From the NCBI RefSeq assembly GCF_050320075.1, contig NZ_CP190022.1: a stretch of DNA of 64,000 nt; one strand, written 5' to 3'. Positions 16,455 through 48,758 of the stretch are shown here, piece after piece. How positions within the stretch are numbered: position 1 is the stretch's first letter; the number at the start of each line of letters is the position of its first letter. Source of the stretch: Escherichia coli. Its GTDB lineage: Bacteria > Pseudomonadota > Gammaproteobacteria > Enterobacterales > Enterobacteriaceae. A program made the position numbers and the translations under genes. The notes under the pieces are model-generated. The model saw nothing but the letters and a program-made list of their open reading frames with translations, was not told the DNA's origin and searched no databases.

Positions 16455-18011
16455 TTGTACAGGAAAATGACTGGCGTGTCTTGTATTAAAGAAAAATCAA
16501 AATATACTTTTGAGAGAGCAAAACAGTTTTATTTTATGTTGTGGTGTAAAGAGTCACTGATTTATCTGTTGTTTTCTGTGCTTGTTACATGGTGTTGCGG
16601 ATATACAGTGAAAAACACCCTGGGGAATGTGCTTATATTGTTCCTGATGTTGTTGTTGGGGCGGCAGAATGTTATTTCAGCAACGTGTGTCTGTATCTTT
16701 CTTTTGTTAAGTGCATTCTATGCTCCGGTTGGGATGATTTACGGAAAAATAAACAACAGTTTTATTGCGTCTGTAATGCAGACAAATCTAAATGAGGCAG
16801 GTGAATTTATCACAGGCATACCTGTTCTTTATTTTATTGTTTCACTGATTATTGCTGCTTTTACATTCTGGTTCTGGCGTAAGCGTGATAAAAGCCACCA
16901 GGGATTTATCTTTCTGTTGTTCTTTATCGTATTGTCAGTAAATGCATGGCCAAAACGTATGGTTACGAATGTAATGACAGGGATAGCTGAAACCAGAGAA
17001 GAAATGATGCGATATGAATCGCTGAAACACAATCAGAAAGATTCATGGGATATTGTGAATGTGGAGAAGAAATATAAAACCATAATTATCGTAATTGGTG
17101 AAAGTGTCAGACGGGATTATCTTTCTGTTTATGGGTATCCTTTGCCGACAACACCATGGTTGAATTCTGCTCCGGGTATATTTATTAATGGGTATTTCTC
17201 CGCAGCTCCGAATACGATAGGTTCACTCAGCAGAACACTGACTCTTGATTACACTGAAACAGGTAATCCGGGTAATAATATTGTTACGCTTGCCAGAAAA
17301 GCCGGATATGAGACGTGGTGGATATCAAATCAGGGCTCTTTAGGGCGACATGATACGCTGATTTCTGTCATCGCCGCCAATGCGGATAAGAAATATTTTC
17401 TTAAGGAAGGGAGCTCTTCTTCCCGTCGCATTGATGATGAAGATATGCTTCAGTATGTCAGGGAAGCTGTTAATTCGTCTTCTCCAAAAGTGATTTTCAT
17501 TCATATGCTGGGGTCCCATCCTAATCCCTGTGACAGACTTTTTAATGATGCACAGCCGTTCAGGGAATTATTCGGAAATAAAGTATCCTGTTATTTATCA
17601 ACATTGCTTAAGCTGGATCGGTTTCTTCAGGCAATTTATAACATGACGACAGAGCATGGCGATGATTTTGCCATGCTGTATTTTTCTGATCATGGGCAAT
17701 CCGTCACTTCAGACAGCACCCCTGTGCATCATGCGCCAGGTTTGCGTTCGGGATACGATGTACCTCTCATGATGATGGCCAGTGATATTACTGAGCACCA
17801 CCTCAATCATGTGCATATCAGTGCACGTCGTTTTCCCGAGATTTTTCAATGGATCACAGGGATACAAACCAAAAATCTGCCGTTAAGTTTTTCTTTGTTA
17901 CAGAATGATTTCGCTGAAAGTGTTTCTGTATTCAATGGTGAACGTGACGTTCCGGTAATGTCTTTGCCAGAAGAGCCGATACTGACCGGAAATGCTGAAT
18001 CAGAAAAATAA
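16455..18011 (+). CDS. Phosphoethanolamine-transferase-family (sulfatase-fold) inner membrane protein
   Basis: N-terminal TM helices, then IIIVIGESVRRDYLSVYGY, FIHMLGSHPNP and FSDHGQS motifs resembling EptA/LptA-type enzymes; low GC; exact start uncertain. Confidence 0.6.
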   Translation: MYRKMTGVSCIKEKSKYTFERAKQFYFMLWCKESLIYLLFSVLVTWCCGYTVKNTLGNVLILFLMLLLGRQNVISATCVCIFLLLSAFYAPVGMIYGKINNSFIASVMQTNLNEAGEFITGIPVLYFIVSLIIAAFTFWFWRKRDKSHQGFIFLLFFIVLSVNAWPKRMVTNVMTGIAETREEMMRYESLKHNQKDSWDIVNVEKKYKTIIIVIGESVRRDYLSVYGYPLPTTPWLNSAPGIFINGYFSAAPNTIGSLSRTLTLDYTETGNPGNNIVTLARKAGYETWWISNQGSLGRHDTLISVIAANADKKYFLKEGSSSSRRIDDEDMLQYVREAVNSSSPKVIFIHMLGSHPNPCDRLFNDAQPFRELFGNKVSCYLSTLLKLDRFLQAIYNMTTEHGDDFAMLYFSDHGQSVTSDSTPVHHAPGLRSGYDVPLMMMASDITEHHLNHVHISARRFPEIFQWITGIQTKNLPLSFSLLQNDFAESVSVFNGERDVPVMSLPEEPILTGNAESEK

Positions 18012-39030: not shown

Positions 39031-40175
39031 CGGGGGAACTCTCCGGCCGGGATGAAGAGCGCTGCTTCTGATTTCTCAATGCGGTCGTTCTGATACATGG
39101 TCAGAACCTGATCCCTTATCCGCCGTTTTTCCTGACGAATGATTTCGTCAATGTAATGTCCCCATGTTGCATGGGATTGTCCGGAGAGCGTATTGCGCAG
39201 TTCGTCAGTCATGACGATGTATTCCCGGACAGCCTGCCTGCCGCCGTCATTTGTTCTGACCAGTACCTGCACCAGAATGAACTGTACGAGGGAAAGCGTG
39301 GCTGCAGCCATCGAATCCCTGATTTCAGGAGGAAACAATCCCAGCAGGCGGGCAAAGGTTTCTCCGGGTGATTTTGTGTGCATGGTGCCGATACAAAAGT
39401 GTCCGGTATTACCCGCCTGGACTGCGGCATCTGCTGTTTCATAATCCCTGATTTCACCGATACCAATGATGTCCGGATTACGGCGAACGGCAGAGCGAAG
39501 TCCTGCAGCAAAACTTTCCACATCGCGCCCGATTTCGGCCTGATGGGGAGGCAGAAGGTCATTCTCTCCGCCCAGAATGTATTCCACCGGATCTTCATAG
39601 GTCACTATTTTGCGATCGTGGAAATTTTTCAGAATGTGGCGATACAGTGCCGCCGCCAGTGTGGATTTCCCGGAGCCGGTTTCTCCGCAGATGAATCCCA
39701 GGCCGGTTTTTCTGAGCATGGCATCCAGCAGATCCGGTTCAATATTCATAGTGAGGATGTCCGGAATATCTGACGGGATCACCCGCATGGTGACGGAAAT
39801 GGCTTTTTCTTCTGTTGCCGATGTTCCCTGTATCAGGTGGCAGCGCAGGCGAACACGCTGACCTCGTTGCAGGCCATAGCGACCGGAGGCATCTCCGCTG
39901 ACCTGAATGGTACGATCCACGGGATGACCTGACAGAACCCGGGGAAGAACCTCCCGCCCAAACAGCTCATCACTCAGTGCCATCATGATGGAGGACGGAA
40001 GGGGATTTACGGATGAGCGAACCCGCCGTCCAAAGCGACTGACGGATACCGGTGAACCGCCGGTCAGATCAATATCACTGACGCGGTGGCGGGCACACCA
40101 GGCAAAAAAATGGCGAAACTCTTCTGCCGTAAAACGGGAGAAGGGGAAGGTACCGAAGTCATCTGGTGATATCAT
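39027..40175 (-). CDS. traJ: TraJ, DotB-like secretion ATPase
   Basis: Start moved to MISPDDFG (aaggag RBS), 382 aa; Walker A GETGSGKST. Confidence 0.8.
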   Translation of the reverse strand: MISPDDFGTFPFSRFTAEEFRHFFAWCARHRVSDIDLTGGSPVSVSRFGRRVRSSVNPLPSSIMMALSDELFGREVLPRVLSGHPVDRTIQVSGDASGRYGLQRGQRVRLRCHLIQGTSATEEKAISVTMRVIPSDIPDILTMNIEPDLLDAMLRKTGLGFICGETGSGKSTLAAALYRHILKNFHDRKIVTYEDPVEYILGGENDLLPPHQAEIGRDVESFAAGLRSAVRRNPDIIGIGEIRDYETADAAVQAGNTGHFCIGTMHTKSPGETFARLLGLFPPEIRDSMAAATLSLVQFILVQVLVRTNDGGRQAVREYIVMTDELRNTLSGQSHATWGHYIDEIIRQEKRRIRDQVLTMYQNDRIEKSEAALFIPAGEFPR

Positions 40176-40995
40176 TTTTCTCTCCTTCGGTGCTGACAAG
40201 AGGGCGCCAGCGCGATTTCTGCAGCGTAAATTCAGCATGTGTTTTCAGGCGGCGGACGCGATCGCCAGTGATGAGTTTTTGCCCGTTGCCGGTAACCGTC
40301 TGCATCTGCTCTGTGACATCTGGACGTGTGATCATGCCCTGACGCCACAGAAGGGCGTAAAGCATCATGCCCCGGTAATCACGGGTCAGGCGCTTCTGAT
40401 TAGCTTCCAGTGTGAGATCTGCGTTGAGGCGCCCTTCCTGCCATCCCTGACGTAAGGCGTTTTCCCATAGTCTGCGTTGTGCCCGGTCTTCCGGCACAAC
40501 CCGGCCTTCAGTGCCTGGTGTGGCGGTGGTTGAGAGTCCTTTCAGCAGCCAGTCACGCCATCCAGGAGGATTACTGACAAAGCGTTCCGGGCGGAGGATA
40601 GTCCAGACACGGGAGGCTGTTCTTATCTGGTCCGGTCTGATGTGTGCAACATCCTGCGCTTCATCGATAACAGGAGGCAGCCAGCCTTCCTTGCTGATGA
40701 GAGGCCGGAAATCATACAGGGCATTCAGGGTACTTTCCCGGGCATTCAGTGCCTGAATCAGTTCCCATGAGCGCTGTGCTTTTCCACCACGGAATCCCAG
40801 CGTTCTGCCGGCATCCGTGAGCATCTGACGACGGGTATCTGAAATACCATCATCCTGGTTGCCGGAGGGCGTCAGCCATGCACGGATATCCGGGGGCGGT
40901 GCGTTTTCTGTCATGACGGCAGAAGAACGGTGATGCTGTCCGGCACAGCCTGTAAGCAGGAGAGCAGACAGCAGGAGACACAGGTGTGTTTTCAT
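40159..40995 (-). CDS. traI: TraI lipoprotein (DotC-like)
   Basis: 278 aa; lipobox LLTGC. Confidence 0.6.
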   Translation of the reverse strand: MKTHLCLLLSALLLTGCAGQHHRSSAVMTENAPPPDIRAWLTPSGNQDDGISDTRRQMLTDAGRTLGFRGGKAQRSWELIQALNARESTLNALYDFRPLISKEGWLPPVIDEAQDVAHIRPDQIRTASRVWTILRPERFVSNPPGWRDWLLKGLSTTATPGTEGRVVPEDRAQRRLWENALRQGWQEGRLNADLTLEANQKRLTRDYRGMMLYALLWRQGMITRPDVTEQMQTVTGNGQKLITGDRVRRLKTHAEFTLQKSRWRPLVSTEGEKNDITR

Positions 40996-41444
40996 TTTTT
41001 CTCCGGCGTCATAAAAGACAGATGTAAACGCCCGGCTGACTGCGAGAGTGTTGCCCGCCAGGCAGTCTGGGCTTCAGTGAGACGAAGGACATCAGCAAAG
41101 GTCATGTCGCGGACGTGCAGTGAGACGGGTAAGGGGAGACGGACGCCGCTGTAGCTGAACTGCTGGCCGCGCAGACGGGCCAGTTCGTTGAGCAATTCCA
41201 GGGCATCGCCTTCCCAGTCAAAGGAAACACGGTCGCTGTGAGCCTTCAGACTGCCGCCGGACTGACGCTCCGGAAGGGCTGCAGAGTAAATTCCCTGCCC
41301 CCATAGCTGATACTGCGCATGCCGGGCGACGGCGACATCAGAGGCAGCACCATACTTTCTGGTCGGAGCTGTATTATCCGGGGGGAGATGGCAGCCGTTC
41401 AGGCAGAGTACGGCGAGACATCCCGCAGGTATCATACGGTTCAT
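40992..41444 (-). CDS. traH: TraH lipoprotein (DotD-like)
   Basis: 150 aa; lipobox CLNGC; lipoprotein-lipoprotein-ATPase order mirrors dotD-dotC-dotB. Confidence 0.55.
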   Translation of the reverse strand: MNRMIPAGCLAVLCLNGCHLPPDNTAPTRKYGAASDVAVARHAQYQLWGQGIYSAALPERQSGGSLKAHSDRVSFDWEGDALELLNELARLRGQQFSYSGVRLPLPVSLHVRDMTFADVLRLTEAQTAWRATLSQSAGRLHLSFMTPEKK

Positions 41445-41492
41445 GGTGTATTTTTCCTGAGCAGTGAAAGAAGAAAGCGTTGTGGGGAGGAT

Positions 41493-41663
41493 TTACTGGT
41501 TCGTGTTTTTGCTGAATGGCTGGAACACCTCAGAGGGTGACAGTGCTACCCGGATACAAATATCGTTTGCTATCACGATATTACATTCGTTAGCTGTCGG
41601 ATCCCGGAACGGTTCCACCATAAAGGCTTTGTTTTCGATATGCGTTTTATTTTTGTTAAACAT
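41493..41663 (-). CDS. Small hypothetical protein (about 56 aa)
   Basis: Short ORF between the FadL-like gene and traH. Confidence 0.25.
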   Translation of the reverse strand: MFNKNKTHIENKAFMVEPFRDPTANECNIVIANDICIRVALSPSEVFQPFSKNTNQ

Positions 41664-41802
41664 GCATTTCCTCATGCGAAAATGATATGTCAGATAACAG
41701 CCAGATCAGAGGCAGCACTACAGGTCTGGCTGTGTCGTTTGATGGTCGGAAAACGCGAGGATGCAGGTCTGGATACCCCGGTCAGTACCGGGGCAGAGAT
41801 GA

Positions 41803-43005
41803 TCAGAATGTGAACTGCAGTTGTGCAACGGCACCGTAGTTGTTGTCTGTGCCTGCTATACCCGCCACATCAATATGGACGACATCAAATGGTGAGATAC
41901 CCAGCCCGGCGGTGAACGCACTGTCATCATTGCTGGCCAGATTCTGGCGGTAGCCTGCACGTAACTGTGCCCATTTCCAGGCATTAAATTCAGCACCAAT
42001 GGCAGCAAACTGACGTTTACTGTCTGATGTGAAGCCACTGGCCGGGGTCAGGTCAACATCCAGTGCTGTAGTGAACATGTCGTTGTGCCAGGAGACACCG
42101 GCAGTCACCTGCGGGCGGATCCTGAAAGTTTCAGTGACACCATGTACCTCTTTGGTCTCAATGCTGCGTGGGATCAGGTTCTGTGCGACCAGACCCAGCG
42201 TCCAGTTGTCATCCAGGTCCATGCTGGCACCGATATCAGCGTTAATACCGTTTTGGGTGTTGTGGTAACGGTTACCTTTGAATGCGCTGCTGTCATAGTT
42301 TTTGATCAGCGTATTGTAGTTAAACAGGTCAACACGCTGGAATTTTGGTGTGAAGCCCAGTGACCATTTTTGTCCGGCCGTTTCCAGTTCAGTGGCCAGC
42401 GCAACGCCCACATCGGTGATCAGTGCGGCACGGGCAAAAGCCTGTGAGGTCAGTCTGTTTTTATCCACATCCTGGCTGCCACTGTCTGCAATGCTTTCCA
42501 GATAGTTCAGGTCGGCATCGCTGACTTTACCGTCGACGCTGACAGTCCCGAACGTTTTCAGCATCAGTGCAGCAGCGAGGGTATCACCGGGAAGGGCCGC
42601 CACAGCAGATGTTCCCACCTGTGCGTCAGCATGCGTGTGACGGAAGTCCTGAAGTCGCGTCTTCAGACGTGCAGCAGTCTGCGACACGTTGCTCTGACTG
42701 TCGATGGCACGATCAAAGGCTTTCCAGTCATCGCTGATTTTGTCGGCGTTGTCGGCGATATTACCCGGATCGGACAGCTGCGCACCCACGGACGGAAGCA
42801 GAAGACTGAAGTCATCTTTTGCACCGGATTTTGTCAGCAGTGCCGGGTTTGCCAGTGGGGCCACACCATAGTGAGAGGAGGCTACCCCGGTTCCCCCCAT
42901 TGCATCATTGCGGGCTTCAAAATATGAAGTTGCGGCTGTTGAATTAAAGGAAAATAAAACAGCAGATGCGATGAGAGTTCGGGTAATGTGCATATTCATC
43001 ATCAT
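41803..43005 (-). CDS. FadL/OmpP1-family outer membrane beta-barrel protein
   Basis: Signal peptide MMMNMHITRTLIASAVLFSFNSTAA; N-terminal NPALL motif; C-terminal ...AVAQLQFTF ending in Phe. Confidence 0.55.
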   Translation of the reverse strand: MMMNMHITRTLIASAVLFSFNSTAATSYFEARNDAMGGTGVASSHYGVAPLANPALLTKSGAKDDFSLLLPSVGAQLSDPGNIADNADKISDDWKAFDRAIDSQSNVSQTAARLKTRLQDFRHTHADAQVGTSAVAALPGDTLAAALMLKTFGTVSVDGKVSDADLNYLESIADSGSQDVDKNRLTSQAFARAALITDVGVALATELETAGQKWSLGFTPKFQRVDLFNYNTLIKNYDSSAFKGNRYHNTQNGINADIGASMDLDDNWTLGLVAQNLIPRSIETKEVHGVTETFRIRPQVTAGVSWHNDMFTTALDVDLTPASGFTSDSKRQFAAIGAEFNAWKWAQLRAGYRQNLASNDDSAFTAGLGISPFDVVHIDVAGIAGTDNNYGAVAQLQFTF

Positions 43006-43094
43006 TTCAGTTTCCTGGTTTGAGGTGTTTTGGGTACAGCAACGGTATGACACGACTGTGCCATTAAAAATTTACTGGTTTTTTCTCTGCGTTA

Positions 43095-43916
43095 TTACCA
43101 GGGTAATAACGGTATACTGAATAACTCAGCAGGTAATATTTTTCCTGTCATCAGATATTCTGCCTGTGCCGGACGAAGCGTTACGGTCCGGACGGATGTC
43201 TTTGCATATAAATTGCGGGCAGTGTGAAACCAGTTTTCTTTTTCCTTATTCATTCTTACAGGTGATAAAGAAAGTACAGGATAAATGATGGCTTTATTAA
43301 TTTCTTTTTTCTTGCGGAACAGTACACCGCAATATTCCTGTGAATGAACACCGGCAAAAGGAAAACTGTGCCAGATAATAATATCCACATTATCGCTGGC
43401 TGAAATAAGCTGGCAGAACGCATCCTGTGTTGCTGGCCACTCACCGGCACGGCTTAAAGGATAACGTACCCTGCCGTTCAGCCATTCCGGGTTGAGATAA
43501 AACCAGTCAGCCAGAGCAGTCAGAATCTCTCCTGTCAGATAATCTGCGAGTTTGTCCGGGTCACGGAAAACGGCAGGACGGATATTCCAGGGAGCCAGTA
43601 ACGTTGTCATCGTTGTTACGCAGACATCATGTGCCTGCATGATGTGTTCTGTCCGGCAGATAAGACGGTGAACGATGTTTTCAGCCGGGAGAAACATTTC
43701 AGTTAATGCATCTTCGACCAGGATACGCGTCAGGTCGGATACAGAAAGGGAGAGTTGCTCGCTCATTATTCCGAGTGCTTCTCTGACGCCCTGCGGATAA
43801 CGGATCTGCAGGGGAGTGGACTGCAACTGGCGGTTATTGAGCAGAGCTTCGCTAATCCGGGCCCTGTCAATGGAGAGCATCATGCGGGCAGCAATGCCTG
43901 TGCTGTTTGGTTTCAT
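43095..43916 (-). CDS. Hypothetical protein (273 aa), tra region
   Basis: ORF in the traE-traG position; no family recognised. Confidence 0.45.
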   Translation of the reverse strand: MKPNSTGIAARMMLSIDRARISEALLNNRQLQSTPLQIRYPQGVREALGIMSEQLSLSVSDLTRILVEDALTEMFLPAENIVHRLICRTEHIMQAHDVCVTTMTTLLAPWNIRPAVFRDPDKLADYLTGEILTALADWFYLNPEWLNGRVRYPLSRAGEWPATQDAFCQLISASDNVDIIIWHSFPFAGVHSQEYCGVLFRKKKEINKAIIYPVLSLSPVRMNKEKENWFHTARNLYAKTSVRTVTLRPAQAEYLMTGKILPAELFSIPLLPW

Positions 43917-44166
43917 TTCACCTCCGTGCGGTTCATATGTTAAGTCTAAAGAGCGTGTTTACTGAACGGAAACGAGTTATTTCGATCGTTATGATCGAGT
44001 GTGTTTCAAGAGTGCTTTTAACTCTGTTTTAAGCGTGAATGAAAAGGATTCGGACAGGACGTGATTTAGCATGCCGCTGGTCTGGCATTATGCTGCAGAG
44101 CAGACGGAGTCAGGAGATTGAAGGGCGGTACAGTCTGCGAAGACTGGACACGGGGTGTGTCGGGAA

Positions 44167-44712
44167 TTAACGCACGTGAGGCGTAATGAGAACGACGCGT
44201 TTTTCGCTAGCTCCACCTCCGGCGAATCCATTCATGACAAGGGACTGTTCCGGTCTGAGAGAAATGCTCTGCTCAACAGTCTGGTTTCGTTTCTGGTCTG
44301 TGGTCGAGAGTCGCAGAGTGATATTGCCCCCCTTAATATCCGGCGATATCTGCATTCTGACATCGGGGGATACATCAGCAGTAAAGGCATCCGGACCTAC
44401 GGATGTTACCTGTGATTCAACACAGGACGTATTCTGCATCATCCCGTGGAGCGTTTCAGGTGTCAGCGTCAGGCTGTCATTAAAAAAAGCACTGTGTGAA
44501 ATGACCCCCTGAGCATCGGCAAACAGGTCCGGATGGCGCTCATTAAGAAGGCTTCCGTATTTTTCCGCCAGGCAGATTGGGTTGCTGGCCGTTGTGTCTG
44601 TTCGCACGGTATCGACCGTGAATGTCACCTGCGGGTGATGTTCCCTGTGGCCTGTGCAGCCGGACAGCAGTGCGGCGGCTATCGTCATCCAGAGTAGTGG
44701 TTGTTTTTTCAT
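44167..44712 (-). CDS. Lipoprotein (181 aa)
   Basis: MKKQPLLWMTIAAALLSGCTGH signal peptide with lipobox LSGC. Confidence 0.5.
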   Translation of the reverse strand: MKKQPLLWMTIAAALLSGCTGHREHHPQVTFTVDTVRTDTTASNPICLAEKYGSLLNERHPDLFADAQGVISHSAFFNDSLTLTPETLHGMMQNTSCVESQVTSVGPDAFTADVSPDVRMQISPDIKGGNITLRLSTTDQKRNQTVEQSISLRPEQSLVMNGFAGGGASEKRVVLITPHVR

Positions 44713-44830
44713 GCTGTTAATTTCCTCTCAGGGTAAAAAGAAAGACTCGCACCGTCATGTCAATGGTAAGCGTACAGCCTGAACCGTCTGGTCAGAATCT
44801 GACGAATTAGACATAGGGGCAAATCCATGT

Positions 44831-45142
44831 TTATTTTGCATCCATCATCTCGCCCATCAGCAGTCGGATACGCTGCCAGGTGTCATGATCCAGTACAGGT
44901 GATGGTATTACCATGCAAGCACTGTGCCCGGTAGCGGCGGCAGAAAGCATGGCTTTAACTTCGTAGGCATTGCCAGTAAGGATAACCCTCCCCGTCAACC
45001 CCAACACTGAGTTGGCGTGAATTGGTGGTGTGAATTCGATTTCGTTAATGTCCCGGCCAGTTAGGATGCGATTATTATCCGCATTGGCAGCACGGGAGGA
45101 TACGTGTTTCATAAAGAACCTCATTGCGTTAATTTTGAACAA
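44831..45142 (-). CDS. Hypothetical protein (about 100 aa) downstream of rci
   Basis: ORF only; start ambiguous. Confidence 0.3.
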   Translation of the reverse strand: MFKINAMRFFMKHVSSRAANADNNRILTGRDINEIEFTPPIHANSVLGLTGRVILTGNAYEVKAMLSAAATGHSACMVIPSPVLDHDTWQRIRLLMGEMMDAK

Positions 45143-45152
45143 AATTGTTTGC

Positions 45153-46322
45153 TCAGCAAGGGGATGTGAGAATAGTGGTTGATTTTGTCATAAGCTGGTC
45201 GTTTGTTAACGGACAAATCATTACCCGTTCATCAATGTTTGTAGGAAGTTCGCCAGGAGTTGGGACACGCTCTCCTCGCTGGGCGGCTTGTGCCAGTGTT
45301 CGTAGCAGCAACACGCTGGCATGAAATATGGCCTGTTCTTTTGTGGCTGCGCTTGTTTCCAGGTCGAAATCACTCAGAGTCACAACGACTTGCCCGTTTC
45401 TGTTCTCGACCGTTGCCGGGTAGGGAACAAAATAGGGAGCGATTTTGCTGGTTTGCTTGCGTCGGGCATCGAGTTTACTGACAAGTTGATAAGCCCGAAG
45501 GTGTGTGTATCGTTTCAACATGTTCAGGGAGCGATGGCCTGAAATAGCGGCAACTTCAATGACGTTCAATGTACCAAGTTCGAAAAATCGGCTGATAGCC
45601 TCATGACGGAGGTCATGAAAATGCAAGTTTTCTATATTCAGTTCCTGAAGTGCTGTTCGCCAGGCACTTTTGAATCCCGAAGATGTATAAGAAAAAATAT
45701 TACCGTTAAGCTGTATTGGCAGCATTTGCAGGTAACTACGGGCTTTCCTGGATAGCGGAACATCGCGTGGAGCACCATTTTTGGTTGTTGGAAGATGAGC
45801 TACCCCATGTTGCAGATCGACGTGTTCCCAACGCAATGACAAGATTTCACCTTGTCGCATTGCTGTTTCCAGCGCCAGATGAAAAATGACGTAAAGAGCC
45901 TGATTTTTTTCTTTGAAATACCGCGAAAGTCGGCGTTCTTCTCCTGAAGTCAGGCGACGATCGCGCCCGCTACTGATTTTGGGTTTTCTGACCAGTTCGA
46001 CAGGATTCATACGGCATGTTCCCCATTCCACACGGGCGATATTGAATAATGATGATAAAAGGGCAAGTTCAAGACGGACGGTATTTCCGGTGATTTGACG
46101 CCCTGTTCGTGGGTTAATTTGAGCTAAACGCTGATCCCGGTAACCGGCGATATCAATGGTAGTGATTTCATCCATATAGCGCTCGGCCATAGGGTGACGT
46201 TTAATCACATTGACGCGATAAAACTCCTGCAGATGACCTTTTTTATGGACGGAAACGGTTTTCAGGTATTTGTCCAGCGCCCGGTTGAGAGTCATTTTGC
46301 GAATTTTGATTTTTCGAAACAT
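45153..46322 (-). CDS. rci: Rci shufflon-specific tyrosine recombinase
   Basis: Start chosen at [12 protein letters not shown] (389 aa); integrase-family motifs including HDLRHE; adjacent to 19-bp sfx repeats. Confidence 0.8.
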
Positions 46323-46384
46323 ATCTGCCTTCCACGATAAAAACGGGGAAGGTAGGAATAGTGAAACGGAAATGCAATATCGCC

Positions 46385-48758
46385 GTGCCAATCCGGTATC
46401 TGGACAACGACAAAAATGAACTTCACTACCAGTACATACAATATCGGGAAAAATACCGTAATCTGAGCATTGGCGTACATGCGTACTGCTCGTGGACATA
46501 CCTTAATGGCTCGCCTTTTGGTGGTTTTCAGCAGATATACGCCGACCAAAACAAGGTTTGGTATGTGAATAATTATGCGTGGGGAAATTATGAGTCCGGT
46601 GGCACAATTACAGTGACATGCCTCAACCTTCCTGGTGCCGGAATCTAACCAAAAGGGCAACAGTAAGCATCGACGTGCTCTTCATCAACACCATCTCCGA
46701 TGCCGTACATTCTTGTACCTGTCATGACGTACCCGGCAGGGCACTGAATCGGCTTGTAATAAATAGAACCTCCACTTCTGCCACCGATAAAATGTGCGGA
46801 GGTCGCTTCATACCATTTACAGGCAGAATAGTTCACTTTATTGCCTCCAAGCCACAAACCGGATTGGCACTGGCCTCCGTGCCAATCCGGTTCGTGGACA
46901 AGTAGCCAAAAGAAAGAACGTTTCACGGTATACGGAATAAGTGGATGTGGGCATACACCGTCCTATGCGGTATGTCCTGATGGCAGTGATTTAGTTTCTG
47001 GTGGGTATCAGTTAACGGCTTGGTCCCAGGATAACCGGAACCCGTTTAACTCACCAGACTCAAGTTACCCAGACTGGAATAATAAACGTTGGGTTGTCGG
47101 AGGTACCGGAACTATCACGAGCTGTTTCCGCTCAGTAGCTGTATGTGCCAGATAATGTGCGACAGAGCTTTCAACGGAAACAGTGAACAGTGATGTAATA
47201 GCTGCTATACAATGTGCCATTGTACGCACTCCAATTCATCTCGCCGTTTACATCTGGATTATCTGTCGGCCAGACTCTTGTCATTGCAGTTTCCTTTCCG
47301 TCTATACGATATGTATTAACGCAAAGTTTGAATTTTCCCAGAGCCTTCGTTGTGGTTGGGTACAAGGTGAAGGATGTTACTGATGTCCACGGCGCAGCAG
47401 AACCGATTGATTTCCACGAACCGGATTGGCACTGGCCTCCGTGCCAATCCGGTTCGTGGAAAAATGCAGGAAAAGGCGATATTGAAATCGTCAAAGTAAC
47501 AGCATCAAAACTCCGCTGGCCTGGTGCTACTGCCACCTGCCCAATGGGTAAGAAGGTGATCGGGGGTGGTGCAGAATGCAGCTCTGGAATTGGCTTTATC
47601 TGGCTTGTCCGTTCAATACCTGTAAACAATAATGCCTGGTATGGCTATTGCGATACGACAGAACACATCATTGGAAAAATAACTGTACATGCCATTTGCC
47701 AATGACAAAGTGATTTACTGGCAAACCACAATGTAACTACATTTCCCCGTCAGGTCGTTCCTGTTTGTACCGCCGTGAAAATTGTATTCATCGTAGTAAC
47801 CACACTTCACAATCCTGTTCGAATCATATGTCGCAACAGAACCTGCGAAGTAATTTGGCTTCCAGCCATGCGGGTTTTCAGCATTGCTGACGCTCCAGGT
47901 ACACTGGCTGGCAGAAAAACCAGACGGCAAAGGTAGTCGTTCTCCATTTGCGATTTTTCCTGTCAGAACAGTGCTACCTGATACCCTAATCCACGAACCG
48001 GATTGGCACTGGCCTCCGTGCCAATCCGGTGTGTGGGTTGGCTTTGAATCGGACCCTGTGGGAAGCCCTATCCCGTGGCCATCTGCCACTCCTCCACAAG
48101 GCTATCTGTTGATGAACGGCCAGTCGTTTTCCTGTTCCCGGTATCCTCAGCTTGCCCGTGCTTATCCTGGCTGTAAATTGCCCGATCTGCGCGGTGTTTT
48201 TATCCGTGGCTGGGATAACGGGAAGGGACTTGCATGGTGATCCACAGACAACTCCTGGTTATCAGGCCGATCAATCAGGCGTCTATCACGAACGTGGCGG
48301 ATGGCTGAAAGGGCATCATAGTTATGCCATACTGGGCACAGGGGAGTACCACATGTGAAATGCGTCCCAAAAATATTGCATTCAACTACATTGTTAAAGC
48401 CAGCTAGGGACTCACATCTGATAGGCATACACAGATAACACCGTTACCACAGGCGTAAATTTTGTGTTGGTCTGGAGATGATTTGATATGACGCTCCCAC
48501 TGGCACGGCAAATGAAATAAATGCTGTCTTTCCGTAGGAGGGGTTATTGCTGGCATTCATACCAATGAAAGCGCCGTTCACATAGCCCTGAAGATTTGAT
48601 GTGTTGGCGCAATCACCGCCACCGGCACCATTTCCACCGGAAGCGTACACAAACAAAGCCTGCCGTTATTTCTCCCGTTAAATGTTCCCCGGTGAGAACC
48701 CAGATTGCTGTAACTTCCGTCAGGTGCACCAATCGTTCGCCACACACCGGATTGGCAC
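46385..48758. mobile_element. Shufflon: four invertible segments bounded by 19-bp sfx repeats, carrying alternative PilV C-terminal ends on both strands
   Basis: sfx copies gtgccaatccgg(t/g)(a/t/g)(t/c)(c/g)tgg at about 46385, 46879, 47441, 48018 and inverted copies at about 46851, 47414, 47991, 48740; track ORFs on both strands begin with the repeat-encoded HEPDWHWPPCQSG / PDWHGGQCQSG. Confidence 0.8.

Follow-up and report, generated by a model that had tools for sequence, protein, structure and literature searches.

Does the interval between rci and traH in this I-type transfer region harbor a foreign outer membrane channel, or does its β-barrel gene belong to the conjugative backbone? The DNA analyzed here (the window) comprises 64,000 nt of Escherichia coli (GCF_050320075.1, contig NZ_CP190022.1), and the locus studied occupies positions 41493 to 45142. 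According to the R64 map, only traE, traF, and traG lie between rci and traH in that plasmid, against five ORFs in the window. All five were confirmed in the ORF list, and all are read from the minus strand. The count given by the first-pass annotation was therefore correct, as was its report of a lipoprotein gene (44167 to 44712) and two small ORFs (44831 to 45142 and 41493 to 41675), all on the minus strand. Its description of extra ORFs in a traE-traG block holds in that such ORFs exist, but the interval consists of traE, traF, and three ORFs without an R64 counterpart, and traG is absent. Likewise, the comparison with R64 that it proposed recovers TraE (57% identity) and TraF (294/400 identical residues) but no TraG homologue in the window.

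At the DNA level, the region from 41400 to 45200 matches two plasmids typed as IncK2/Z at 100%. The upstream neighbor is rci (45153 to 46322, minus strand), the shufflon tyrosine recombinase gene, for which the 100%-identical records give "site-specific integrase." It shares 72% DNA identity with R64 rci over 45460 to 46304, and blastn found no DNA homology to R64 in its last ~100 codons. The downstream neighbor is traH (40992 to 41444, minus strand), the first gene of the essential traH-trbC block, encoding a DotD-like lipoprotein. Its product is 65% identical to R64 TraH and is annotated in the records as a DotD/TraH family lipoprotein; it matches the NCBIfam DotD model weakly (E value, 8.2e-5; 22.9 bits, under the 140-bit cut-off). 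When the window was aligned to R64 DNA by blastn, only rci, traE-traF, and traH aligned (68 to 72%). The nearest relative, CP071713, is 97.5% identical over 44122 to 40901, and the segment from 44123 to 44826 is replaced. No Rfam match (E ≤ 0.1) was obtained over 41300 to 46600, and a scan for promoters and terminators returned none beyond the shuffled expectation. In addition, none of the five ORFs matched PADLOC, which makes a defense system unlikely. The five-ORF arrangement is already known: public records show it, with annotation, for dozens to hundreds of plasmids. Very probably, the window, read on its minus strand, represents the transfer region of an I-complex plasmid of IncK2/Z type, in which the rci-traH block consists of an ordinary traE-traF pair surrounded by lineage-specific accessory genes.

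The barrel gene was listed as an ORF at 41803 to 43053 starting from GTG (416 aa). The ATG at 43005, preceded by AGGA, yields a product of 400 aa (41803 to 43005, minus strand), predicted to be a Sec-exported outer membrane β-barrel. The first-pass annotation regarded this protein as an unusual, possibly foreign component unless R64 TraF turned out to be the same protein. It is the same: the two align without gaps, and the NPALL motif and the LQFTF end are common to both. The gene follows rci and traE and precedes traH, which agrees with the R64 map and with the relatives. The HMM search suggested for the FadL/OMPP1 family gave no Toluene_X match; instead, TraF matched Pfam TraF_2 (PF13729) with an i-Evalue of 1.9e-67 over model positions 1 to 264 of 264, and R64-type TraF is the founding member type of that family. 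"Conjugal transfer protein TraF" is the annotation in 1,936 plasmid records, and PHROGs assigns the protein only to a family of unknown function. On sequence grounds, the barrel protein is thus an orthologue of R64 TraF, whose gene has long been catalogued in conjugative plasmids of the IncI type. Protein databases name it TraF, and "PorP/SprF" stands as a wrong label in some records. Relative to R64, traF has a pN of 0.16, a pS of 0.70, and a dN/dS of 0.09, and the dN/dS of traH is 0.16. Since traF has diverged in step with traE and traH (~69% DNA identity), it belongs to the ancestral I-complex backbone and was not inserted there.

The sequence features that had drawn attention to the protein were all seen, namely, a signal peptide (residues 1 to 24 in the 400-aa numbering; model pLDDT of <50 there), NPALL at residues 53 to 57, and the C-terminal LQFTF. 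The C terminus is a typical β-signal, so Sec export and BAM insertion are expected. The structure model has a mean pLDDT of 91.6 and shows 14 long strands by our reading, a barrel plugged by an N-terminal hatch carrying NPA, and two long helices in the first extracellular loop. Across 72 sequences with 28 to 74% identity, no variation occurs at N53 and P54 and almost none at A55 and L56. TraF is therefore predicted with confidence to be a FadL-type outer membrane barrel with an invariant NPA hatch. The hatch of FadL has its NPA at residues 33 to 35 (titles of PDB entries 2r4o, 2r4n, and 2r4l). The resemblance to FadL/OmpP1 thus stands for the modeled fold and hatch but not for the sequence family. 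Membership in FadL/OMPP1 by sequence was rejected, as Toluene_X (PF03349) was not matched in Pfam even at E ≤ 10 and hhalign of the 72-sequence profile against E. coli FadL gave a probability of 3.7%, a weak test given its single-sequence template. A sequence search of the PDB gave no match, and the PorV/PorQ model (NCBIfam NF033709) scored 46.5 bits, under its curated cut-off of 90. Because the FadL profile comparison was nonsignificant and Toluene_X was not matched, a FadL-like transport mechanism cannot be assumed for TraF.

Two transposon screens bear on what the barrel does for the plasmid. In Tn-seq of pESBL (PMC4288162, Table 2), TraE, TraF, and TraG had probabilities of 0.93, 1.00, and 0.79, respectively, of being nonessential and of 0.00 each of being required for transfer. 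TraDIS of pMS7163B, which has an IncB/O backbone, identified traBC, traH-Y, sogLS, trbAC, nikAB, and a few others as conjugation genes; traE and traF were not included, and liquid mating could not be screened (PMC10286972). Both screens covered surface mating with laboratory E. coli only, so "dispensable" is bound to those conditions. Mating on surfaces in the laboratory proceeds without TraF, and strong purifying selection keeps traF. No assigned function for TraF was found. Most likely, TraF is an accessory protein of the donor envelope, outside the core type IVB secretion machine. By analogy of the modeled fold, it may gate a hydrophobic or amphipathic ligand at the outer membrane, as in FadL and TodX, or it may give a second envelope component a place to dock, as this fold does in PorV and BamG.

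These data allow the possible origins and roles of TraF to be weighed. Insertion of a foreign FadL-family hydrophobic-compound channel into the traE-traG block of the I-type (Dot/Icm-like) backbone would fit the FadL-type fold, the NPA motif, and the distant TraF_2 members found on chromosomes without T4SS genes. It is nevertheless highly improbable, as the same gene occupies the same position in R64 and is present in 1,936 plasmids, with a divergence that keeps pace with that of traE and traH. The chromosomal members do imply that TraF_2 is not intrinsically a conjugation family and that TraF could be cargo benefiting the host. In that case it would contribute to host or plasmid fitness independently of DNA transfer, for instance through uptake of a hydrophobic nutrient or through changed envelope permeability or resistance, and would merely be cotranscribed with the tra genes. 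A fold nearest to FadL, homologues in nonconjugative contexts, and dispensability for mating speak for such a role. We consider it rather doubtful, as the place of traF inside the transfer operon is kept across lineages with wholly different cargo regions and no sequence-level link connects TraF to characterized transporters.

Tentatively, TraF could also have a structural or mating-pair function in I-type conjugation, for instance as an outer membrane anchor or partner of the T4BSS or thin pilus, and its loss would matter only in liquid mating, with particular recipients or LPS types, or in the gut. The synteny of traF beside the shufflon/rci and traH is fixed in all I-complex lineages and purifying selection on it is very strong, both of which are consistent with this role, as are the docking roles that this fold fills in the T9SS (PorV) and BAM (BamG) and the restriction of the screens to surface mating. 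The absence of a traF phenotype in two independent transposon screens counts against it, together with the family members that have no T4SS nearby. TraF is also not known to have a Dot/Icm counterpart.

The remaining backbone gene in the interval is traE (43095 to 43916, minus strand), whose 273-aa product aligns with its R64 orthologue over the full length and has a dN/dS of 0.19. TraE had no Pfam, NCBIfam, or PDB sequence match. R64 TraG gave no tblastn match (E ≤ 1e-3) anywhere in the window. Homologues were found in 1,441 plasmids, of which ~1,371 carry them at ≥95% identity, the IncI1 type; traG is probably an IncI1-lineage gene missing from the IncK2 lineage. Some annotations name the R64 traG product "LPS core heptose(II)-phosphate phosphatase."

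The transfer region of R64 contains no homologue of the three extra ORFs. Immediately following rci, both here and in CP071713, is orfX (44831 to 45112, minus strand), a PGAP-annotated hypothetical gene encoding a cytoplasmic-looking protein of 93 aa from an ATG with a good Shine-Dalgarno sequence; a longer option from TTG (44831 to 45142) would encode 103 aa. The other small ORF (41493 to 41663, minus strand; 56 aa, with GAGGAA upstream) sits in the traF-traH interval immediately upstream of traH and could alternatively span 41493 to 41675 (60 aa). Both are probably common to IncB/O/K/Z relatives. tblastn found orfX homologues in 200 plasmids (58 at ≥95% and ~140 at ~60% identity), and the 56-aa ORF is present in 176. 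Neither has a Pfam, NCBIfam, PHROG, or PADLOC match, which would suit chance ORFs in intergenic DNA, as would the promoter and terminator scan that was no better than chance. In addition, orfX has a dN/dS of 0.87 against its CP071713 homologue, the ends being conserved and the center divergent, which makes its coding status insecure; orfX may be noncoding. Still, that one or both ORFs arose by chance is unlikely overall, since both reading frames are preserved in divergent plasmids, where indels are in frame, both are preceded by a Shine-Dalgarno sequence, and orfX is retained at ~60% identity in so many plasmids. Moreover, the 56-aa ORF has a dN/dS of 0.50 and a homologue of 87 aa in pAVS0968-C that is 41% identical, carries a 27-codon insertion, and occupies the same position upstream of traH.

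The third extra ORF encodes a predicted outer membrane lipoprotein of 181 aa (44167 to 44712, minus strand) with a lipobox LLSG/C, Thr at +2, and a C-terminal segment that weakly resembles secretins. Its signal peptide ends in a lipobox of the form L-[AS]-[GA]-C, read directly as MKKQPLLWMTIAAALLSG/C, and L16, S17, G18, and C19 are nearly invariant in the family alignment. The gene lies on a cassette of ~650 bp (44120 to 44766, minus strand; blastn boundaries) that is 93% identical at the DNA level to pEc98_1 and is shared at this identity with the traC-pilI slot of IncI1-like plasmids. The last 50 nt of the cassette (44120 to 44169) are the start of a 108-nt element that flanks the lipoprotein gene as a direct repeat in pEc98_1 and is found once in R64, upstream of pilI; the window retains the 50-nt remnant. 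At the cassette site, CP071713 has a different segment of 461 bp. In ~470 IncI1/Iγ-typed plasmids, a lipoprotein homologue (~91% identity) fills the slot of R64 traD between traC and pilI; the window has nothing in that slot and carries the lipoprotein gene between rci/orfX and traE instead. We propose that an IncI1-like plasmid supplied this ~650-bp cassette from its traC-pilI slot and that the gene thereby reached the IncK2 rci-traE gap. The two gaps behave as exchangeable accessory slots in I-complex plasmids.

Several relationships for the lipoprotein were tried and rejected. Despite the shared slot in IncI1 plasmids, it is unrelated to R64 TraD (E value, 66), of which the whole window contains no homologue; nor is there a second lipoprotein or traD-like gene in the empty slot between traC and pilI. 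A two-gene module was dismissed as well, as orfX shows no similarity to the 92-aa ORF that lies ahead of the lipoprotein homologue in CP123263. A profile search for longer or annotated relatives found none, and the family is closed (41 clusters, all on Enterobacteriaceae plasmids). The lipoprotein had no significant match to Pfam Secretin (PF00263), with an E value of ~0.05 in only 2 of 13 members, its profile had no match in the PDB, and its structure model has a pLDDT of 61.

The lipoprotein and TraF can be combined in one broader and rather improbable reading, in which the former is a minimal secretin-domain protein ("mini-PilN") on the ~650-bp cassette and the latter performs an unrecognized envelope step of I-type conjugation. 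Among IncI1, IncK2, and IncI2 plasmids, the cassette may move between slots that border thin-pilus genes, and its product could coassemble with or modulate the PilN secretin. TraF, for its part, whose gene is under stronger purifying selection than traH but can be spared in laboratory matings, may handle a lipid- or LPS-related ligand or dock a surface component, a step relevant only in natural settings.

As a discovery, the barrel gene carries little weight, being R64 traF. Its FadL fold and invariant NPA hatch do provide a concrete hypothesis for a conserved gene, and among the cargo of the accessory slots is an orphan lipoprotein whose likeness to secretins is weak. Both in poultry and in humans, I-complex plasmids rank among the main vehicles of ESBL and AmpC genes. 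If accessory envelope genes do tune transfer in the gut, this would be of practical interest.

Compared with known systems, the lipoprotein differs from the type IVb pilus secretin lipoproteins PilN/BfpB in size (181 versus 539 aa) and in having neither their N domains nor the stretch that links GF to VVLITP. FadL is the closest fold to TraF, but the FadL/TodX/TbuX channels (Toluene_X, OMPP1) share only 10 to 19% identity with it. PorV, the T9SS shuttle, and BamG, a BAM subunit of Bacteroidota, have the same fold, whereas the window offers no T9SS or Bacteroidota-type BAM context. The nearest counterpart is TraF of the IncI1 plasmid R64 (WP_000976351), which has the same length of 400 aa, 74% identity, and the same place between traE and traH. 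In R64, the traF-traH interval is filled by traG, of the histidine phosphatase family, and in the window by the unrelated 56-aa ORF; apart from this change downstream of traF, the two differ only by lineage-level divergence.

The ORF list for 39500-47500 shows a run of co-oriented minus-strand genes. Between rci (45153-46322) and traH (40992-41444), the latter followed by traI and traJ, lie orfX (44831-45142; 93 to 103 aa), a 181-aa lipoprotein ORF (44167-44712) whose product begins with the lipoprotein signal MKKQPLLWMTIAAALLSG followed by C, a 273-aa ORF (43095-43916), a 400-aa ORF (41803-43005; 416 aa from an upstream GTG) and a small ORF of 56 to 60 aa (41493-41675). ATG codons at 45112, 44712, 43916, 43005 and 41663 are each preceded by a Shine-Dalgarno sequence. 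The 400-aa protein carries a signal peptide, an NPALL motif at residues 53 to 57 and a C-terminal LQFTF. Together, the ORF list, protein features and start sites therefore confirm the first-pass annotation of five ORFs, one encoding a FadL-like barrel, as it was written.

The reference IncI1 plasmid R64 has the order rci, traE (274 aa), traF (400 aa), a 194-aa histidine-phosphatase family gene (traG) and traH. The window's 400-aa protein and R64 TraF align over their full length without gaps, at 74% identity, and share the NPALL motif and the LQFTF terminus; the 273-aa protein matches R64 TraE at 57% identity. Hence the proposal that the barrel is unusual for this transfer backbone does not hold, as R64 TraF is the same protein. 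The gene count does differ from that of R64, as proposed, although the tally of five ORFs overlooked the absence of traG. Homologues of R64 TraG and TraD were found nowhere in the 64-kb window, and a homologue of any of the three extra ORFs is likewise missing from the R64 transfer region. Only rci (46304-45460), traE-traF (43926-41802) and traH (41475-40945) align to R64 DNA, at 68 to 72% identity. The last ~100 codons of rci (45153-45460, minus strand) lack DNA homology to R64 rci, the remainder being 72% identical. The recombinase hence has a lineage-specific C-terminal part. The block is the usual traE-traF pair of the I-complex, accompanied by accessory genes that are specific to the lineage.

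Public plasmids already contain the whole arrangement, with annotation. By megablast, two plasmids are 100% identical across 41400-45200, and ~60 records, mostly from poultry E. coli, span the full stretch. Both identical records are of the IncK2/Z type, with a MOBP relaxase and MPF_I mating-pair formation; in both, the 273-aa and 400-aa proteins bear the names TraE and TraF, and the remaining three ORFs are labelled hypothetical. The best PLSDB records for window positions 1-25000 reach only ~95% identity, in several pieces, compared with the 100% matches at 41400-45200. The plasmid of origin is probably a mosaic absent from PLSDB.

Of the three extra ORFs, most is learned from the lipoprotein gene, which is found in 953 plasmids. 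Plasmids typed as IncI1/Igamma carry a 91%-identical copy between traC and pilI, a slot that in R64 holds the unrelated traD, and IncI2 plasmids carry a 44%-identical copy near the pilL/pilM genes. At the DNA level, 44120-44766 shares 93% identity with the IncI1-type copy, against only ~70% identity to IncI1 for the backbone on either side. In the IncI1-like plasmid pEc98_1 (NZ_CP024093.1), a 108-nt element that begins at a TAA stop codon lies on both sides of the gene as a direct repeat, with 93% identity between copies (L005 4336-4443 and 5050-5157). R64 has a single copy of this element upstream of pilI (L008 7139-7246), and the window retains only its first 50 nt, after the lipoprotein gene (44120-44169). 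This suggests that genes in the slot are gained and lost via recombination at the 108-nt element. Most simply, the IncK2 lineage would have acquired the cassette recently, by transfer from the traC-pilI slot of an IncI1-like plasmid into its own rci-traE gap. The nearest relative, CP071713, matches at 97.5% identity from 44122 on, and a different 461-bp segment replaces the lipoprotein cassette. Its rci-traE gap (L009, NZ_CP071713.1, 4354-4674, plus strand) contains an opposite-strand 106-aa ORF for a very hydrophobic small protein without a family match, another sign that this gap is an exchangeable slot.

The lipoprotein has no Pfam domain and belongs to a closed family of 41 clusters, all from enterobacterial plasmids, with a dN/dS of 0.33 to 0.38. 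Pfam Secretin is touched by 2 of 13 family members (E of ~0.05). The C-terminal motifs are colinear with the end of PilN from the same plasmid (BLASTP E of 0.004; hhalign E of 8.8e-5 over 19 columns, probability 60%), and PilN is a BfpB homologue (E of 3e-38). This possible likeness to secretins is a lead, not a finding. The 56-aa ORF, present in 176 plasmids with a dN/dS of 0.50, has an 87-aa homologue (41% identical) in a divergent plasmid, in the same position upstream of traH, and is probably a real small gene. orfX lies 3' of rci in ~200 plasmids (58 at ≥95% identity and ~140 at ~60%), including CP071713. Compared to the CP071713 homologue, it is almost unchanged at both termini, but ~40 residues in the centre have diverged strongly and include a 3-codon indel; the overall dN/dS is 0.87. 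No family match was obtained in Pfam, NCBIfam, PHROG or PADLOC. The putative gene orfX (44831-45112, minus strand) may encode a rapidly evolving protein or no protein.

Elsewhere in the window, 16455-18011 (plus strand) encodes a 518-aa protein, a distant phosphoethanolamine-transferase family member. Its best match is the CptA subfamily (6e-31; 107 bits against a 404-bit cutoff), with much weaker MCR and EptA matches. IncI1 plasmids have traG instead, which some records name LPS core heptose(II)-phosphate phosphatase. Both products would act on the phosphate decoration of the LPS inner core. The LPS core is the receptor region of the PilV adhesin.

The resemblance of TraF to FadL, as first noticed, is correct at the level of the fold but does not extend to the sequence family. 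Pfam assigns TraF to TraF_2 (1.9e-67) and not to Toluene_X, the only NCBIfam match is a subthreshold one to PorV/PorQ, and a 72-sequence TraF profile gave no significant alignment to E. coli FadL (probability 3.7%). A PDB search with the TraF sequence found no chain. The AlphaFold2 model from the 72-sequence alignment has a pLDDT of 91.6 and a pTM of 0.86. Among sequences with as little as 28% identity, N53 and P54 never vary and A55 and L56 hardly do; this NPA matches the FadL NPA hatch motif, which is mutated in FadL PDB entries. The most fitting description places TraF in the FadL structural superfamily, with a separate sequence family of its own (1,233 clusters at 50% identity, E ≤ 0.001). 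Because distant members occur on chromosomes, away from any T4SS genes, TraF_2 is a general outer-membrane barrel family. Several Salmonella records call TraF "type IX secretion system membrane protein PorP/SprF", a carry-over from weak barrel-family similarity that is misleading in Enterobacteriaceae.

Based on the fold, the best inference is that TraF would be an accessory donor-envelope protein outside the T4BSS core, and would either gate the passage of a hydrophobic ligand or provide a barrel for docking. Compared to R64, traF has a dN/dS of 0.09 (pN 0.16, pS 0.70), next to 0.16 for traH and 0.19 for traE. These ratios indicate strong purifying selection on traF despite its dispensability in transposon screens. 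In the IncI1 plasmid pESBL, transposon sequencing gave non-essential probabilities of 0.93, 1.00 and 0.79 for TraE, TraF and TraG, with a probability of requirement for transfer of 0.00 for all three, and the required tra block was described as running from traH to trbC (PMC4288162). Similarly, TraDIS of pMS7163B with surface mating (liquid mating could not be screened) identified traBC, traH-Y, sogLS, trbAC, nikAB and a few new genes as required, a set without traE and traF (PMC10286972). pMS7163B has an IncB/O backbone and belongs to the same broad cluster as the window plasmid.
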